In this document: one piece after another, positions 19,185 to 41,104 of the stretch | Numbering within the stretch: the stretch's first letter is position 1 | How the letters are laid out: each line of letters starts with the position of its first letter | NCBI GenBank assembly: GCA_003194485.1 | Contig: PQXD01000011.1 | Coordinates: 6,093-70,092, forward strand | Source: Deltaproteobacteria bacterium | Lineage (GTDB): Bacteria > Desulfobacterota > Dissulfuribacteria > Dissulfuribacterales > UBA3076 | Length of the DNA: 64,000 bases | Direction: 5' to 3' | Notes under the pieces: generated by a model | What the model was told of the DNA's origin: nothing | Database searches by the model: none | What the model saw: the letters and a program-made list of their open reading frames with translations, nothing else | Position numbers and translations under genes: made by a program

Positions 19185-19238
19185 TGTCCAGTACTTAGAA
19201 TACAGTGAAATAATCTGCATCTCGTTTGCCAGTTTATA

Positions 19239-19298
19239 CTTTCTTCAAAAAATGTGCGCTATCGAATTGAATACGGATGCTGAAAACGGAAATTCGAA
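19239..19298. repeat. Interspersed repeat family 3, copy 1 (partner at 35357-35417)
   Basis: CTTTCTTCAAAAAA.GT.C..TATC.AATTGAATACGGATGCTGAAA.CGGAAATTCGAA is shared between the two loci. Confidence 0.55.
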
Positions 19299-19526
19299 CG
19301 CCAAATAATCCGCCCTGGATACGCTCTGCCTTCCCGCCTCAATACCATTTTCAACCAATGCCTTCTTGACCGACATGGCTTCATTACGAGGCATTTTAAG
19401 GATAGTCCATAGTACAGCAGTATGGCAGGTATGAACCACTGGAGTAGCCCGAAGACATGACCTGAAATTTTAACGCAAAGATCTACTGCGAAGAAAACAC
19501 CCGAAGTGAGGACGATGGCCAGGTGC

Positions 19527-19695
19527 CCTGCCTTGGAGCGGTTACCTTTTTCCGGGTTTCAAAGCTCACTCATCGCAGACCGTAGAGGCAGTGCAATCCG
19601 GCCCGCGATCGAAACCCTGCAAAAGGCAAACCGCTCCTGCGGCAGGGCACGGATGGCAACTTCCACAGTGGACCACGGGTTCACCGGATATTTAC
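19527..19695 (+). mobile_element. MITE copy B (left ~30 nt, including the TIR, is missing)
   Basis: Homology starts at CCTGCCTTGGAGCGG and runs to an intact right TIR ..ACGGGTTCACCGGATATTTAC. No TSD is detectable. Confidence 0.8.
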
Positions 19696-26179: not shown

Positions 26180-26582
26180 GTAAATATTCGGTGAACCCGT
26201 TATATCCTGCCTTGAAGCGGTTACCTTTTTCCGGGTTTCAAAGCTCACTCATCGCAGACCGGAGAGGCAGTGCAATCCGGCCCGCTACCCAAAACCCCGA
26301 AAAAAGGCAAACCGCTCCTGCGGCAGGGGGCACGGATGGCAACCGTTCACTGGAGGGGATATTTCTTTGAACAGTTTAACGGAAGCCCCCGTAGTTTTCT
26401 CGGCTTTTGCTGTGGGGAAAACTGCATCGCCTGAGCGCAGCGTAAGGCGAATGCAGAGGGGGCAGGACATCCCCCATGTCAAAGGCCTTAAGAAAACAAG
26501 GGGCTGAAGTGTGAAGTGAAAAGAAATATCCCCTTCCCGTGAACGGTTTGCGGAATGGACTACGGGTTCACCGGATATTTAC
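26180..26582 (+). mobile_element. MITE copy D, 403-bp composite (long) form
   Basis: The outer TIRs are those of the family. Perfect TSD ATTGGAAA at 26172-26179 and 26583-26590. An extra ~205-bp internal segment is bounded by inside-out TIR-like inverted repeats (26343-26365 and 26523-26546). Confidence 0.9.
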
Positions 26583-26627
26583 ATTGGAAATCCGTGTATG
26601 TGAATGAGATTAAGGAGTTGCCATTTA

Positions 26628-33590: not shown

Positions 33591-34638
33591 CGGCCGTTTC
33601 CGAGTCCTCAAAACAGGCATTTATTTTTTTCAACAGGACCTCTCTGATCTCGGCTGCTGTCCCGGTCTTACGGAAACCTGCTGCATGAAAGTGCCCTCCG
33701 CCTCCGAATTCCTTGGCCAGTTCTGCTACATTAAAGAACGACTTTGACCGCATGCTGACAGATACCTGCCCGGCATGGACCTCTTTTATGAAAATGGCAA
33801 CTTCTACTGTATCTATGCACCGGACATGTCCTACAAAATCCTCTGTGTCGTACTCTGTTGCACCGCAGATACGAAACATCTCCGGAGTGGCCTGGAGAAG
33901 TCCTATCTTGCCATGTCCCTTTACTTCGAGGGTCCTTAATACAAGACCTAAAAGGCGTTGCCTGTGCAAAGAATAATTCTGATAAAGCTTGCTTGCAACG
34001 GCATAGGGATTTGCGCCGTGTGCCACGAGATCGCCAGCCATCCGGAAAGCTGTCTCGTCGGTATTGCTGTGACGGAAACATCCTGTGTCCGACAGTATGG
34101 CGGCATAGAGATTAGTGGAGATGTCTTCTGTTATGGGCCATCCAAGTCCTTTGATGATCCGCATGACTATGGCACCGGTGGCAAAAATGTCTGGAGATAT
34201 ATAAGTGATGCAATGAGGGTGTTTTTTCCCCCGGTTCCGGGTACAGAACTGGGCCTGGCCCAGATGATGATCAAGAACGACAATAATTGAGGCCTGCTCT
34301 ATCAATCTTTGTGCCTGCTTTCCCATCCTGTCGGGCTCGTTGCAATCAAGGACCACCAGGGTAGTATTTTCAGGCAGCGGATTAGCTACTTCACTGACCA
34401 GGTATTGAGAGCCAGGGAGAAATTGAAGTGTATTCGGCACAGGGCCTTCTACAAAAAGGGTCACATCCCTGCCTGCATCCTTAAGGGCAAGACCCAGGCC
34501 CAACAAAGAACCCAGGGCATCTCCATCCGGCTTGACATGACAGGTCAAAAGCAGACGATCGGATGCATTGACAGCATCCACCACTGCCTTCAGTTTCTTG
34601 GTATCCTTGGGTAAAACCCCGGTCTCAGTTGTCTTCAA
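33583..34638 (-). CDS. DHH/DHHA1 phosphoesterase (NrnA-like)
   Basis: HVKPDGDALGS, VVLDHH, and the GGGHFHAAG motifs. Confidence 0.85.
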   Translation of the reverse strand: MKTTETGVLPKDTKKLKAVVDAVNASDRLLLTCHVKPDGDALGSLLGLGLALKDAGRDVTLFVEGPVPNTLQFLPGSQYLVSEVANPLPENTTLVVLDCNEPDRMGKQAQRLIEQASIIVVLDHHLGQAQFCTRNRGKKHPHCITYISPDIFATGAIVMRIIKGLGWPITEDISTNLYAAILSDTGCFRHSNTDETAFRMAGDLVAHGANPYAVASKLYQNYSLHRQRLLGLVLRTLEVKGHGKIGLLQATPEMFRICGATEYDTEDFVGHVRCIDTVEVAIFIKEVHAGQVSVSMRSKSFFNVAELAKEFGGGGHFHAAGFRKTGTAAEIREVLLKKINACFEDSETADA

Positions 34639-35003
34639 TTTTCTACCTGTTGGCCGGTTCGCACACTGGCAAGGAGTCTCTCAATCTTTTCCTGGTAATC
34701 CAGGCTCCGGTCCAGTTGAAAGCGGATCTCAGGTATCCGCCTCAGGTCAAGGCGGTGTCCCAGAATTTGCCGTATGAAGCCTTTAGCCTTATTCAGCCCT
34801 TCCAGCACAGATTCCCTTTCAGACTCACTTCCAAGAACCGAAACGAAAAATCTTGCGTAACAGAGGTCCTCCGAAACCTTTACCTGCATTATGGTCACCA
34901 ATCCATGTACCCTTGGATCCTTGATTTCACTGAGCAGTATGTCTGCCACTTCTTTTCTGAGGAGATCCTCTATTCTTCTGGAACGTGGGAACCCGTGGGG
35001 CAT
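34635..35003 (-). CDS. rbfA: Ribosome-binding factor A
   Basis: ..RRIEDLLRKEVADILLSEIKDPR.. in the canonical position downstream of infB. Confidence 0.9.
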   Translation of the reverse strand: MPHGFPRSRRIEDLLRKEVADILLSEIKDPRVHGLVTIMQVKVSEDLCYARFFVSVLGSESERESVLEGLNKAKGFIRQILGHRLDLRRIPEIRFQLDRSLDYQEKIERLLASVRTGQQVEN

Positions 35004-35018
35004 GATCCTCTTGTCTCC

Positions 35019-35312
35019 TTATTTTCCCATGTGAATAATCTCGATATTTGTGTCAGTAACCTCTACCGGACAAGTTTTTTCTATGAAATCCAAGATCTTG
35101 TCCAGTACAGAGTTGATTGCCGGACGGCTATTTCCTACCGCTGATATTCCTATCTCTGCATTTTGCCATACATCGTGCATGGCTATTTCTGACACAGCCA
35201 CATTGAAACGACTGCCCACCTGCCCGATCAAACTCTTAACCACGCGCCGTTTCCCTTTCAGCGAATGGTTCCCGGGCATTCTTACCCTGAGCTTGATTAT
35301 TCCTACAACCAT
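35019..35312 (-). CDS. DUF503 (YlxP-like) protein
   Basis: MVVGIIKLRVRMPGNHSLKGKRRVVKSL... In the infB-rbfA interval, as in many bacteria. Confidence 0.75.
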   Translation of the reverse strand: MVVGIIKLRVRMPGNHSLKGKRRVVKSLIGQVGSRFNVAVSEIAMHDVWQNAEIGISAVGNSRPAINSVLDKILDFIEKTCPVEVTDTNIEIIHMGK

Positions 35313-35328
35313 TTATCGGCATCCTTCA

Positions 35329-35344
35329 TTCACCGGATATTTAC
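35329..35344. repeat. Solo MITE terminal repeat remnant
   Basis: TTCACCGGATATTTAC is an exact 16-nt match to the family's right TIR, with no element body attached. It lies 17 nt upstream of the DUF503 start. Confidence 0.55.
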
Positions 35345-35356
35345 CACTGGTTTGCA

Positions 35357-35417
35357 CTTTCTTCAAAAAAACGTACATTATCAAATTGAATACGGATGCT
35401 GAAACTGGAAATTCGAA
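35357..35417. repeat. Interspersed repeat family 3, copy 2
   Basis: See 19239-19298. Confidence 0.55.
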
Positions 35418-35469
35418 ATTAGGCAACATATCTGCATCTTTTTGTTTTCCCCAATTTCAAATTTCACAT

Positions 35470-35873
35470 GTAAATATCCGGTGAACCCGTAGTCCATTCC
35501 GCAAACCGTTCACGGGAAGGGGATATTTCTTTTCACTTCACACTTTAGCCCCTTGTTTTCTTAAGGCCTTTGACATGGGGGATGTCCTGCCCCCTCTGCA
35601 TTCGCCTTACGCTGCGCTCAGGCGATGCAGTTTTCCCCACAGCAAAAGCCGAGAAAACTACGGGGGCTTCCGTTAAACTGTTCAAAGAAATATCCCCTCC
35701 AGTGAACGGTTGCCATCCGTGCCCCCTGCCGCAGGAGCGGTTTGCCTTTTTTCGGGGTTTTGGGTAGCGGGCCGGATTGCACTGCCTCTCCGGTCTGCGA
35801 TGAGTGAGCTTTGAAACCCGGAAAAAGGTAACCGCTCCAAGGCAGAATATAACGGGTTCATAAGAATATTTAC
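35470..35873 (-). mobile_element. MITE copy E, 404-bp composite (long) form, inverted relative to copy D
   Basis: The reverse complement differs from copy D at about 6 positions by eye. Perfect TSD TTTCACAT at 35462-35469 and 35874-35881. The right TSD contains the infB stop codon. Confidence 0.9.
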
Positions 35874-35875
35874 TT

Positions 35876-38659
35876 TCACATTTCTTTCTCTCTGGCATCA
35901 GATATAGATTCTCCGAGGACAGGGGTTTCTTCTCTCATTATATAAGTCTCTATTATGTCCCCTGTCTTTATGTCATTGAACTTTTCAAGGCCTATTCCGC
36001 ATTCATACCCGGCCTGGACTTCTTTCGCGTCTTCTTTGAAGCGACGAAGAGATGCTATCTTGCCTTTATAAGTTACCACGTTGTCTCTTAAAAGCCTGGC
36101 CTTGGCATTTCTTTTGATCAAGCCTTCCAGCACATAGCACCCTGCCACTGTACCGACTTTGCCAATGTGGAAGACGTCACGAACCTCGGCGCGTCCCATG
36201 GGCTCTTCCCTGTAGACAGGTTCAAGCAAACCTGCCATGGCATCTTTAATTTCCTCAATGGCATGGTAAATGACATCGTAGAAGCGGATGTCCACATGTT
36301 CATGTTCAGCTAAGGCCTTTGCCTGTGGGCTGGGCTTTACATTAAAGCCTATGATGCTGGCATTTGAAGCAGATGCCAGCAAGACGTCGGATTCAGTGAT
36401 GGCCCCGATACCGCTCCTGACGAAATTTACCTTTATCTCTTGGGTACTGAGCTTGTGCAGTGCCTCTGCAAGGGCCTCCACAGAACCCTGAACATCAGCC
36501 TTGAGCACTATATTGAGTTCCTTGAGTTCCTCCTCCCGGAGTCTTTCAAAGACATTTTCCAGACTTACTTTGCTGCTCCTGAGCAGTTCCTTCTCTCTTA
36601 TCTTGCGCTGGCGATACTCAGCCACCTCTCTGGCCTTCTTGTCGTCAGAAAGTACCGTGAATTCGTTTCCTGGCTCAGGCACGCCGGAGAGACCCTGGAT
36701 TTCCACTGGCATGGAGGGACGGGCAGCCTTTATCCTTTCATCCTTGTCGTTGAGCATGGCCCTCACTCTGCCGTGATGTATACCACAGACGAGAGCGTCA
36801 CCTATATGCAGTGTACCTTCTGAGACCAAAAGGGTAGCCACGGGACCACGCCCTCTGTCCAGCTTGGCTTCTATCACGTGACCTCTGGCAGGCCGCTTGG
36901 GATCTGCCTTGAGCTCCATCACCTCGGCCTGGAGGGCCATCATCTCAAGCAGTTCTTCTATTCCCGTTTTTTCTTTGGCAGAGATGTTGATGCAAATGGT
37001 CTCTCCGCCCCAATCCTCAAGAACTAATCCCAGTTCAGAAAGTTGCCTTTTTACTTTTTCCGGATTAGCCCCCGGCTTGTCGATTTTGTTGATTGCTACA
37101 ATGATAGGGACCCCGGCTGCCCGGGCGTGATCTATGGCCTCATGTGTCTGGGCCATTACACCGTCATCCGCCGCTACCAGCAGTATCACGATATCAGTAA
37201 CCTTGGCTCCGCGAGCCCTCATGGCTGTGAATGATTCATGGCCCGGGGTGTCCAGAAAGACTACCTCCTGACCAAAGGGAAGTGTGACATGATATGCGCC
37301 TATATGCTGGGTGATGCCGCCTGCCTCCTTTGAAGCCACATCTGCTTTACGGATGGCATCCAGGAGCGTGGTCTTTCCATGATCTACGTGGCCCATGATT
37401 GTGACCACAGGGGGTCTTGGCACAGGCTCGCCCTCCCGGACATCCTCTGTGTGGACCAGGTCCTCAGCCACAGACTTCTTCTCCAGTTCATAGTCAAACC
37501 CAGAGGCCACGATGCTGGCTACGTCGTAATCGACAGACTGATTAACTGTGGCCATTACGCCCAGGTCCATGAGCTTCATTATGACGTCTCCCGCCCTGAC
37601 GCCCATCCGCTTGGCAAGCTCACCCACCTGAATAGTCTCGTATATGGCAAACCTTCGTTTGCCTGCCTTGGGAGGGGCGGTACTGGGCTTAAGGACAACT
37701 TCCTCCTTTTGTGCTGAATCGCCGTAATCCCTGGAAATTTCCTTTTTTTCCCGGCCGGATACTGTTATATCAATCTCCTCCGCAAGAATTTTGTTTATAT
37801 GTTTCTGTTTTTCCTTCCACTTCGGAGTAACCCGGCGTTTTTTGAGCGGCTTTTCCAACTCCGACATCTGGACTACTCTCTTGCCCTTCTTTTTGCTTTT
37901 TTTTTCAGGAACTGCAGAGATATCAATTAAGGGAACCGGCGGTTCCTTAGAGAGTTCATCCGGATGGAGAGGTAATGTGGTCCGGCGAGCATGGCTTTCT
38001 GGTTTATCGTTTTTTTGACGGGAGATTTTAATCCTCGGCAGATCGAGGATCTTTACAAAGCTTTCGGGTTTATCAGCCCTGGTCTTTTTTACAGTCTTGG
38101 GTTTATGGGTGGTCTCGGGCAGAGCAGGCTGTTTTTCAGGTACAGATTCTTTATCTGATCCTGATGCAGTTCCGGTTACCTCCTGTCCGGATTCGATTTC
38201 TGGCCGTTCTCTTTCAATAGTCGGGGCTTCCTCCACGGCCTTAATTTCTTCCTCTTTCCCGGCGACAGGAGCAGCCCCCTGCACCTCTTCTTCTGTTCCC
38301 GCAGCCTTATCCGGTTTATCTGTAGTAGTTTCTGGTTCTGCCTCAACTGGTTTTTCAGCCTCTTTTCTCTGTACCTCGACAATAGTCTCGCCTTTAGTCT
38401 CAGTTGAACGAACGATTTTTTTGAGGATAATTTTCCGGTGCCTGAGACGCACCGTGGTTTTTGGCTCGGCCTCCTGCTTTTTCTTTGCCGCCGCATGCGC
38501 CTCACCCCTCAGTTTGCGGCGGATATCCCGGGCCTCATAGTCCTCAAGTGTACTCATATAATTCTTGATGTTGTAGCCAAGATCAATAATCTTGGCCGCC
38601 ATCTCTTTACTGGCTACCCCGAATTCTTTGGCCAGCTCATGAACTCTGATTTTAGTCAT
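35876..38659 (-). CDS. infB: Translation initiation factor IF-2
   Basis: 927 aa. [18 protein letters not shown], and NKID. Confidence 0.95.
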
Positions 38660-38725: not shown

Positions 38726-40042
38726 TCATGGATCGGCCTGTTCATCTTCTATCGCTTCCGGCTGCTTCACCCCGGTATCTGCCTCTTCAGCATGGACCTC
38801 CTCTTTTCCCTCTTCCTTCAGTTTTTTGGCCTCTTCCACCAATGAGCTGATCAACTCCATGCTCAGGTTGGTCTTCTGCGAGAGTTCATCAGGATCAGCC
38901 TGGGCAAGAAGCTCGAGTGAAGTGGCACCAAGGTCATAGATCTTGTCCGCTATGTTCTCTGTTACAGCAGATATCTTTAATAATGAGTGATAACCAGGAT
39001 CCTGGTAGTGTTGATAGCGGGTCTCACTTATCACATCTATTCTCCAACCCATGAGCTTGGCTGCAAGACGTACGTTTTGCCCTTGCCGTCCGATGGCAAG
39101 AGAAAGCTGGTCATTCGGCACGATAACTTCCAATGACTGGTTGGAATCGTCCACTATAACTCTGGAACACTCGGCCGGGGCCAGGGCATTGTAAACATAC
39201 TTTGCAGGATCAGGGCTCCACGGTACTATATCTATCTTTTCGCCCCTGAGTTCCTGAACCACTGCCTGGACCCTTGATCCCCGCATACCCACACAAGCTC
39301 CTACGGGGTCCACATCAGACTCACTGGCGCTGACAGCGATCTTGGATCTGCTTCCAGGCTCCCTGCTCACTCCCATAATGTGAACTATTCCCTCTGAGAT
39401 TTCCGGTACTTCCAGTTCAAAAAGCTTGACCAGAAAATCCGGATGTGTCCTGGATAAAACGATCTGGGGTTCTTTTTGCGTATCTTTCACTTCAATTATC
39501 AAGGCACGGAGCCGGTCGCCATGGCGGTAGCTTTCGCTGGAAATCTGCTCAAATGCAGGCAGGATAGCTTCTGTTCGACCCAGATTGATTATAATATTTC
39601 CCCTTTCGTAGCGCTGGATAATGCCGTTTACAACCTCGCCTTCCCGACCCTTGAATTCCTCATAGATAAGATCCTTTTCAGCAGTCTTCATCTTCTGGAT
39701 GATTACCTGTCTGGCTGACTGGGCTGCTATTCGCCCCAGGGCTGAAATATCCATTTTGGTGCCGATACAATCTTCCAATTCACATTTGGAATCAAGCTCT
39801 TTGGCCTTTTTCAGAGAAATTTCCGCTTCTTTGTCATGGACTTCTTTTACTACTGTACGATACTGAAATACCTCAATTTCGCCCCGGACATCGTCAAAAT
39901 TGACTTCCAGATCAAGATTGGCACCATAGCGTTTTTTGACAGCCGATTTGATTGCCTCCTCAAGCGCAGCAATAAGAATATTGCGGTCTAACCCTTTTTC
40001 CCTGCTTACCTGATCTATGATCATCTTGAGTTCTGAACCCAT
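38726..40042 (-). CDS. nusA: Transcription termination/antitermination factor NusA
   Basis: S1, two KH domains, and a C-terminal acidic region. In the canonical rimP-nusA-infB order. Confidence 0.95.
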   Translation of the reverse strand: MGSELKMIIDQVSREKGLDRNILIAALEEAIKSAVKKRYGANLDLEVNFDDVRGEIEVFQYRTVVKEVHDKEAEISLKKAKELDSKCELEDCIGTKMDISALGRIAAQSARQVIIQKMKTAEKDLIYEEFKGREGEVVNGIIQRYERGNIIINLGRTEAILPAFEQISSESYRHGDRLRALIIEVKDTQKEPQIVLSRTHPDFLVKLFELEVPEISEGIVHIMGVSREPGSRSKIAVSASESDVDPVGACVGMRGSRVQAVVQELRGEKIDIVPWSPDPAKYVYNALAPAECSRVIVDDSNQSLEVIVPNDQLSLAIGRQGQNVRLAAKLMGWRIDVISETRYQHYQDPGYHSLLKISAVTENIADKIYDLGATSLELLAQADPDELSQKTNLSMELISSLVEEAKKLKEEGKEEVHAEEADTGVKQPEAIEDEQADP

Positions 40043-40086: not shown

Positions 40087-40560
40087 CTAAATTATGTCTA
40101 ACCTGGCCTTGGCTACAAGTTCAAAAGGGATATTAAAGACCGTTTTCTCTGTGGAAACAACTATAAAATTTTCCCTTGTCCCATGCAAAATGCCTCTGAA
40201 ATTTCTACGGCCATCTATTGGTTCTCTGGTCTTGATCAAGACCTTCTGACCAGCGAAACGTTCAAAATCATCCCTCTTTTTTAGCGGTCGATTAATCCCT
40301 GAAGAAGATACCTCCAGATTGTATGATCCCGGCACAAAATCCTTCGCGTCCAGAAGGTCACCTACCAGCCGGCTTATGTCCGCGCAATCATCGACTGTCA
40401 CTCCATCCGGTTTGTCTATGGTGAGCCTCAGGACAGTGCCTGAAGGCCCGCGGCCATATTCCACATCAACCAATTCCATGCCTGTATATACCACTACTGG
40501 TTCAATAAGTGCCCTTACAGCTTCCGCTTGTCGGTCTCTATTTTTTCTGTTAAGCACCAT
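40087..40560 (-). CDS. rimP: Ribosome maturation factor RimP
   Basis: 157 aa located upstream of nusA. ..LEVSSSGINRPL.. Confidence 0.9.
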   Translation of the reverse strand: MVLNRKNRDRQAEAVRALIEPVVVYTGMELVDVEYGRGPSGTVLRLTIDKPDGVTVDDCADISRLVGDLLDAKDFVPGSYNLEVSSSGINRPLKKRDDFERFAGQKVLIKTREPIDGRRNFRGILHGTRENFIVVSTEKTVFNIPFELVAKARLDII

Positions 40561-40907: not shown

Positions 40908-41088
40908 ATAAATATCCGGTGAACGGTTGCCATCCGTGCCCTGCCGCAGGAGCGGCTTGCCTTTTTACGGGGTTTTGGGTGGCGGGCCGGATTGCACTGC
41001 CTCTCCGGTCTGCGATGAGTGAGCCTTGAAACCCAGAAAAAGGTAACCGCTCCAAGGCAGGATATAACGGGTTCATAAGAATATTTAC
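40908..41088 (-). mobile_element. MITE copy F (181 bp, a short variant)
   Basis: One TIR is ATAAATATCCGGTGAACGG, and the arm lacks the ~18-nt GGTCCACTGTGGAAG segment. Perfect TSD TATGATCC at 40900-40907 and 41089-41096. Confidence 0.88.
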
Positions 41089-41104
41089 TATGATCCATGA
41101 GAGG

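Follow-up and report, generated by a model that had tools for sequence, protein, structure and literature searches.

A nested IS66-type miniature transposable element and older mobile repeats stacked at the infB-DUF503 junction of an uncultured deltaproteobacterium

In Escherichia coli, the operon metY-rimP-nusA-infB-rbfA-truB-rpsO-pnp is transcribed with read-through from infB into rbfA-truB-rpsO-pnp, and its long transcript contains RNase III sites, the processing hairpins being native leader structures and not transposons. The same gene order is found in a 64,000-nt stretch (hereafter the window; GCA_003194485.1, contig PQXD01000011.1, positions 6,093-70,092) of a deltaproteobacterial metagenome-assembled genome (MAG), from a genus which we take to be Seep-SRB2, a sulfate-reducing partner of methane-oxidising archaea. 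Here, the run rimP-nusA-infB-DUF503-rbfA-DHH-truB-rpsO-pnp lies on the minus strand (open reading frame (ORF) list and Pfam); it contains a DUF503 gene that the E. coli operon lacks, and rimP is preceded by tRNA-Gly(CCC) instead of the tRNA-fMet of E. coli. The spacer between infB and DUF503 holds a 404-nt miniature inverted-repeat transposable element (MITE), referred to as copy E, which sits on the infB stop codon. We lean towards a reading in which mobile repeats were stacked on a near-zero junction, and in which the MITE is read through by RNA polymerase and its RNA rod plausibly cleaved by RNase III.

Several described families of small repeats invite comparison with this locus. Chunjie, from Geobacter uraniireducens Rf4, is reportedly the subject of Chen et al. 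2008, Genetics 179:2291. As far as its description in a review goes, it is a recently active MITE of ~200 bp in a Desulfobacterota-type genome, with dozens of intergenic copies, one of which resembles copy E in lying within an operon whose structure is unbroken, while it belongs to another element family and copy E is a nested 404-nt form set on older repeats (PMC10969869). The Correia elements (CREE) of Neisseria are likewise small intergenic elements with inverted repeats; transcribed together with their neighbours, they form hairpins, are cleaved or protected by RNase III, and can alter the expression of adjacent genes, but are ~100-150 bp long, generate TA duplications, and carry outward promoters and an IHF site (PMC2649163; PMC10969869). 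Copy E, in contrast, has no convincing outward promoter, and its cleavage is a prediction. Insertion right after a stop codon is shared with the ERIC elements of Yersinia, for which an orientation-dependent stability of the upstream mRNA is characteristic, although these act via an RNase E site (PMC10969869). Members of the ISBst12 group of the IS66 family, e.g., ISDge4, have GTAA or GTGA termini and an 8-bp direct repeat as copy E does, whereas ISDge4 encodes a 449-aa transposase and copy E is non-coding (PMC12898284). The BOX, RUP, and SPRITE families of Streptococcus pneumoniae also bunch and insert into one another; their sequences and host are unrelated, and the infB cluster lies within a core translation operon (PMC3049150; PMC10969869). 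Finally, REP sequences serve as targets of insertion sequences (PMC1525189), which is comparable to a MITE entering the arm of an existing small palindromic repeat (module X, below), whereas the enrichment at the heptamer arrays of the source genome is weak. By analogy, the favoured combination of read-through and RNase III cleavage would probably resemble the Correia elements and be consistent with Chunjie (PMC10969869, PMC2649163).

The junction comprises the following features, all on the minus strand:

35019-35312 (minus): DUF503 (YlxP-like) gene, the first gene 3' of the spacer; Pfam PF04456
35313-35403 (minus): Y, a hairpin module with inverted ends GCATCCGTATTCA / TGAATGAAGGATGC; ~7 copies in the source genome
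35329-35344 (minus): solo MITE terminal repeat, read from the sequence as TTCACCGGATATTTAC (GTAAATATCCGGTGAA on the coding strand)
35404-35469 (minus): X, a palindromic module with GAAAYTN heptamer arms, a long hairpin in the fold; ~18 copies in the source genome
35462-35469 (minus): left copy of the target-site duplication, read from the sequence as TTTCACAT
35470-35873 (minus, 'forward' relative to operon transcription): MITE copy E, 404-nt long form, IS66-type, with GTAA termini and an 8-bp duplication
35506-35709 (minus): second hairpin element nested in copy E (CCGTTCAC...GTGAACGG), delimited by comparing short and long forms
35874-35881 (minus): right copy of the target-site duplication, TTTCACAT, ATG-TGA-AA on the coding strand; a single copy at the empty site of genome G017
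35876-38659 (minus): infB, encoding IF-2 (927 aa, C-terminus ..AREKEM); Pfam IF-2, GTP_EFTU, and IF2_N

Copy E is flanked by a perfect 8-bp duplication, whose right copy spans the last codon (ATG, 35879-35881) and the stop (TGA, 35876-35878) of infB, and the edge of the element lies 2 nt past this stop, exactly as had been proposed from the sequence alone. Because ATGTGAAA was duplicated upon insertion, the IF-2 protein is unaltered. The ends of the element read GTAAATATCCGGTGAACCCGT and ACGGGTTCATAAGAATATTTAC, and its terminal inverted repeats (GTAAATATCCGGTGAACCCGT / GTAAATATTCTTATGAACCCGT) start with 5'-GTAA; these termini and the 8-bp duplication are hallmarks of the IS66 family. The coding content is limited to a single 117-aa ORF without a Pfam hit. 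The original prediction also pointed to relatives lacking the insertion as a comparison, and G017 provides such an empty site, with a 157-nt spacer and one TTTCACAT where the source genome has the MITE. No other species of the genus has copy E at the infB site. Comparison with a short copy (19499-19695) showed that the 400-nt form consists of the 195-nt form plus the nested hairpin element, and in BLAST searches the short copies align to positions 1-35 and 240-404 of copy E only.

The DUF503 locus was compared in the source genome and 30 relatives of the order, with 18 genomes in the genus. Across these 31 genomes the infB-DUF503 junction mostly measures -32 to 39 nt, and 10 of the 18 genus genomes have 0-3 nt (TGA-TAA-ATG), a distance that implies translational coupling. 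The spacer of the source genome (35313-35875) is the longest of all, and its coordinates agree with the 563 nt originally given. Eight of the 18 genus genomes (the source genome and seven others), including the earliest-branching ones in the locus tree, have a 96-157-nt insert at the infB site, equivalent to what this spacer holds besides the MITE; the insert is a repeat unit of ~135 nt formed by the modules X and Y. This XY unit is present in 15 copies in the source genome (e.g., C8:4292-4404, C22:36399-36511, C44:110062-110174, and C19:7533-7644), and each of 18 congeners holds 7 to >40. Most copies are separated from a gene end by 6-80 nt, and they often follow a stop codon by 6-15 nt; with its many dispersed, hairpin-forming, intergenic copies XY classifies as a small dispersed palindromic repeat (REP/MITE-like). 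In the XY-bearing congeners, the infB TGA lies inside the first arm of X, which indicates that XY itself rewrote the end of infB, and the 3' arm of Y holds the Shine-Dalgarno sequence of DUF503 (AAGGA, 35322-35326). The repeat 'family 3' of the original prediction (35357-35417) is a genuine repeat, but the interval covers only the X/Y boundary of the ~135-nt unit, and the seven congeners with XY at the same site contradict its accumulation in the source genome. Similarly, the estimate of about 480 repeat-derived nucleotides was too low, as essentially all 563 nt are accounted for by XY (~135), a footprint (14), the MITE (404), and one copy of the duplication (8).

The footprint is a net insertion of 14 nt (35336-35349) within Y, without counterpart in any other Y-bearing species of the genus and present in all conspecific contigs; it upholds the solo MITE terminal repeat that had been recognised at 35329-35344. 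Its length is exactly that expected from a putative insertion of a MITE with the duplication AACNNGTG and a subsequent deletion between two GGTGAA motifs, one in the terminal repeat and one in the flank.

The spacer may thus have been assembled in three steps. XY (~135 nt) would have entered the junction at the outset, and now supplies the infB stop and the ribosome-binding site of DUF503. An IS66-type MITE would then have inserted near the 3' end of Y and been almost entirely deleted between the GGTGAA motifs, leaving the 14-nt footprint, and during a species-confined burst the 404-nt nested MITE would have gone into the first arm of X, duplicating ATGTGAAA. Copy E itself would be a tolerated passenger. 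The locus offers a base-by-base record of how a coupled core translation junction, 0-3 nt in relatives, was extended to 563 nt by successive repeats with no gene lost.

Gene calls were made genome-wide with a crude, ORF-based procedure that is locally accurate. On these calls, 72 MITE copies lie between co-directional genes and 3 inside genes, and 41 of the copies between co-directional genes have a remaining spacer of ≤ 300 nt, hence operon-internal MITEs are common. The long-form copies between co-directional genes are oriented forward in 19 cases and reverse in 5 (p = 0.0066), or 13 vs. 2 when only spacers with ≤ 300 nt remaining are counted, while the short form is evenly split (24 forward, 24 reverse). 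Copy E has the favoured orientation; as read from its sequence, reversal would place the nested apical hairpin before UUUU.

For the spacer RNA, a folding energy of -219 kcal/mol (z = -7.5) is predicted, and for copy E one of -177 kcal/mol (z = -8.1); an RNase III gene is encoded at C39:337-993 (246 bits). A consensus scan for terminator-like sites, taken as a G+C-rich hairpin with a U-run behind it, found none on the sense (minus) strand in 34900-36100 and one on the plus (antisense) strand, at 35728-35741. No sense-strand promoter with ≥ 9/12 matches was found by the consensus scan, and with relaxed settings the best matches reached 8/12; the MITE and Y contain one each, and the MITE edge none. 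The match in Y, a candidate sigma-70 promoter (GTTTCA-17-GATAAT), was rejected as weak, since the orthologues do not preserve its -10 box (GATAAC, GATAGT). The lack of terminators and promoters on the sense strand disfavours an attenuator or a new internal promoter, and the stable rod together with the RNase III gene makes a processing site conceivable.

Y at the infB locus is 91-95% identical to its orthologues in G017, G001, and G015, compared with 69-74% at four-fold sites. The Y paralogues in other species match as closely as the orthologue, so that selection specific to this locus is inseparable from homogenisation within the XY family. Covariation gives moderate backing to the Y hairpin: a hand-drawn three-helix model had 84% of its cells paired, against 20-42% in slid controls, with 6 pairs changed on both sides. 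RNAalifold found no consensus structure in 13 Y copies. A second Y copy (19232-19298) immediately precedes an 89-aa ORF that starts at 19220 on the minus strand, thus the window has two loci with Y right before a start codon.

In its present orientation, copy E would offer RNA polymerase no hairpin followed by a U-tract, and the nusA-infB transcript would read on into DUF503-rbfA-truB-rpsO-pnp; the RNA of the MITE would fold back into a long double-stranded rod, which RNase III could plausibly cut. Such a rod would more likely affect RNA processing or stability than act as a terminator or a promoter. Several points weigh against this reading. The orientation bias is drawn from 24 copies with crude gene calls and could reflect the direction of replication, and the short forms share the antisense terminator-like motif yet show no bias. 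Moreover, an uncoupled and untranslated stretch of 563 nt could provoke Rho-dependent polarity, and Y is conserved well above the level of synonymous sites, so a promoter or regulatory role of Y that makes the downstream genes independent of read-through is possible. Alternatively, the MITE and the older repeats could be transcribed silently, without measurable consequences for RNA ends, RNA stability, or the expression of downstream genes, an outcome that we deem rather unlikely: a near-perfect predicted RNA duplex of ~200 bp that stays uncut would be unusual where RNase III is encoded, and the long-form bias of 19 to 5 suggests that the RNA or DNA strand matters, whereas the presence of ~200 copies in the genome (3 in genes, 72 between co-directional genes), the intact infB, and a sense strand without terminator or promoter are what one would expect of elements that do nothing.

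Splitting of the operon, i.e., a spacer at which transcription is blocked or attenuated, be it intrinsically or by way of Rho, with DUF503-rbfA-truB-rpsO-pnp served by a promoter located in Y or on the edge of the MITE, seems to us improbable. The translational coupling of the 0-3-nt junctions in 10 genus genomes is lost in the source genome, and Y combines a high conservation (91-95% vs. 69-74% at four-fold sites) with a position immediately 5' of start codons at the infB locus and at least one other, and with a weak GTTTCA-17-GATAAT match; however, this sole promoter-like match reaches 8/12 with a -10 box not kept in orthologues, the sense strand lacks a terminator-like site, and the conservation may stem from homogenisation in the multi-copy XY family. 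An assembly artefact, in which a collapsed repeat misplaced the MITE, has next to no chance of being the explanation, since both junctions with their perfect duplications stand in one contig and the same filled site recurs in independent JGI, ENA, and Logan assemblies, even though the MAG is fragmented (87 contigs) and copy E is 98-99% identical to other copies. If the rod cleavage of the reading we lean towards, or attenuation, proved true, a transposon would be re-partitioning the nusA-infB / rbfA-truB-rpsO-pnp transcript in an uncultured partner of methane oxidisers.

The MITE family is abundant in the source genome, as a BLAST search of copy E against the 2.55-Mb assembly gave 286 high-scoring segment pairs in ~220 clusters, with two forms of 195 and 400 nt. 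Perfect 8-bp duplications flank 39 of 75 end-paired copies (57 of 75 with ≤ 1 mismatch), and the 334 MITE ends found genome-wide fall into two terminal variants and share a weak target consensus (nTTTnAAAn). At least 41 copies were scored in the source species, while the 17 other congeners have 0-2 each, and the burst appears almost confined to the source species. A single 96% copy was seen in G005, at the end of a contig (C196:8-203); transfer or bin contamination could account for it. An autonomous IS66-type parent with matching ends was not found in the assembly, where DDE_Tnp_IS66 is represented by two fragments only (C54:2784-3334 and C27:1-690), without MITE-type ends nearby; the autonomous element may have remained unassembled in the fragmented MAG. 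The C54 and C27 transposase halves lie at mutually overlapping contig ends, with one in-frame TGA. Further candidates were set aside: a 2306-nt pair of terminal inverted repeats on C22 as the parent element, as it encloses ordinary genes; GTAAATATTCTTATGAACC, an 'odd' terminal repeat, as an orthology marker, as 71 ends carry it; a general target preference for ATTGGAAA, as copy D (below) is the sole case among the 334 ends; and targeting to heptamer arrays, for which the enrichment was weak (2 of 61 arrays abut a MITE end vs. 0.3 expected). A MITE lies in an X arm at the infB site and at C22:36512.

With ~200 copies in the genome, copy E at infB is an ordinary and expected MITE insertion, and landing on a stop codon is not above chance in the source genome. 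By the crude gene calls, the stop of seven genes falls within a MITE duplication, while random placement of ~170-220 insertions predicts 3.7-4.9 such cases (P(≥ 7) = 0.08-0.21). In addition, 13 genes take their stop from a MITE terminus (C3:53182, C11:142676, C11:221163, C13:1000, C33:54655, C87:66426, and seven others), with 6 genes ending on the TAA at terminus bases 2-4 (G|TAA|AT) and 7 stopping 7-14 nt into the terminus, e.g., on the TGA at bases 13-15. Since the terminus has early stops in two of the three frames, insertions at gene ends are cheap, and landings there are harmless.

Variation at the site was followed in conspecific metagenome contigs, which were found by scanning for a conserved Y motif; an exact search of the metagenome contigs for the infB-end allele of the source genome gave 0 matches. 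The conspecific contigs are 98.8-99.0% identical over 8.7-11 kb, and the footprint and the long-form MITE, in the same spot and orientation, are present in all six that reach them, indicating that both are fixed and tolerated. Comparison of L113:8898-9470, L117, and L119 with positions 35462-35881 of the window separated two haplotypes. Haplotype 1 (the source genome, L118, and L121) has the duplication ATGTGAAA, while haplotype 2 has ATTGGAAA, in both copies in L113 and L117; the L119 contig starts inside the MITE, where the DUF503-side copy alone is readable and is ATTGGAAA. In L113 and L117, the infB TGA is lost; the protein ends in ..EKEIGK, and the stop is a TAA supplied by the MITE. Between haplotypes, the divergence is 6-7% in the MITE interior and ~0.7% in the flanks.

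A concerted change of 2 nt in both copies of the duplication cannot result from point mutation following one insertion. Either two insertions at the same 8-bp target took place, or ectopic conversion from copy D extended over the ends. Copy D is the inverted partner of E (26180-26583, plus strand, 8.9 kb away), 98-99% identical to it and flanked in the source genome by ATTGGAAA on both sides; in L113, copy D has the duplication ATTGGAAA at least on the right side. Conversion is disfavoured by the haplotype-2 element being only 85% like its own D, and a hotspot by the weak nTTTnAAAn preference and the lack of any other ATTGGAAA target in the family. A D/E inversion as the cause of swapped duplications was discarded, as synteny is unchanged in L113. 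In the source genome, D shares 98.3% identity with E. The orthologous D of L113 (L113:1-178), with the same right duplication and flank, is only ~85% like either, which points to gene conversion from E to D between the inverted copies 8.9 kb apart. The older MITE footprint lies 120 nt from the target that the haplotypes share. That the first arm of X at the infB stop is a recurrent landing pad for MITEs is a tentative suggestion from these sequences, and we would not bet on it; were it true, it would imply structure- or array-directed targeting by an IS66-type transposase, and possibly also selection in favour of a cleavable RNA rod by which IF-2 synthesis is uncoupled from the downstream ribosome-maturation genes.

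The other genes assigned coordinates in the run, identified from the ORF list and Pfam, are:

34635-35003 (minus): rbfA
38726-40042 (minus): nusA
40087-40560 (minus): rimP

The DHH-family gene, truB, rpsO, and pnp follow 3' of rbfA in this order. All remaining junctions of the rimP-to-pnp run are overlaps or ≤ 84 nt, the infB-DUF503 junction being the sole exception. Among Rfam families, tRNAs alone reach the gathering score in the window, with nothing at E ≤ 1 in 35250-35950. The tRNA-Gly(CCC) gene lies upstream of rimP, and a partial MITE copy (40927-41089) is found between a 598-aa gene and this tRNA, hence the upstream edge of the same operon was hit too.

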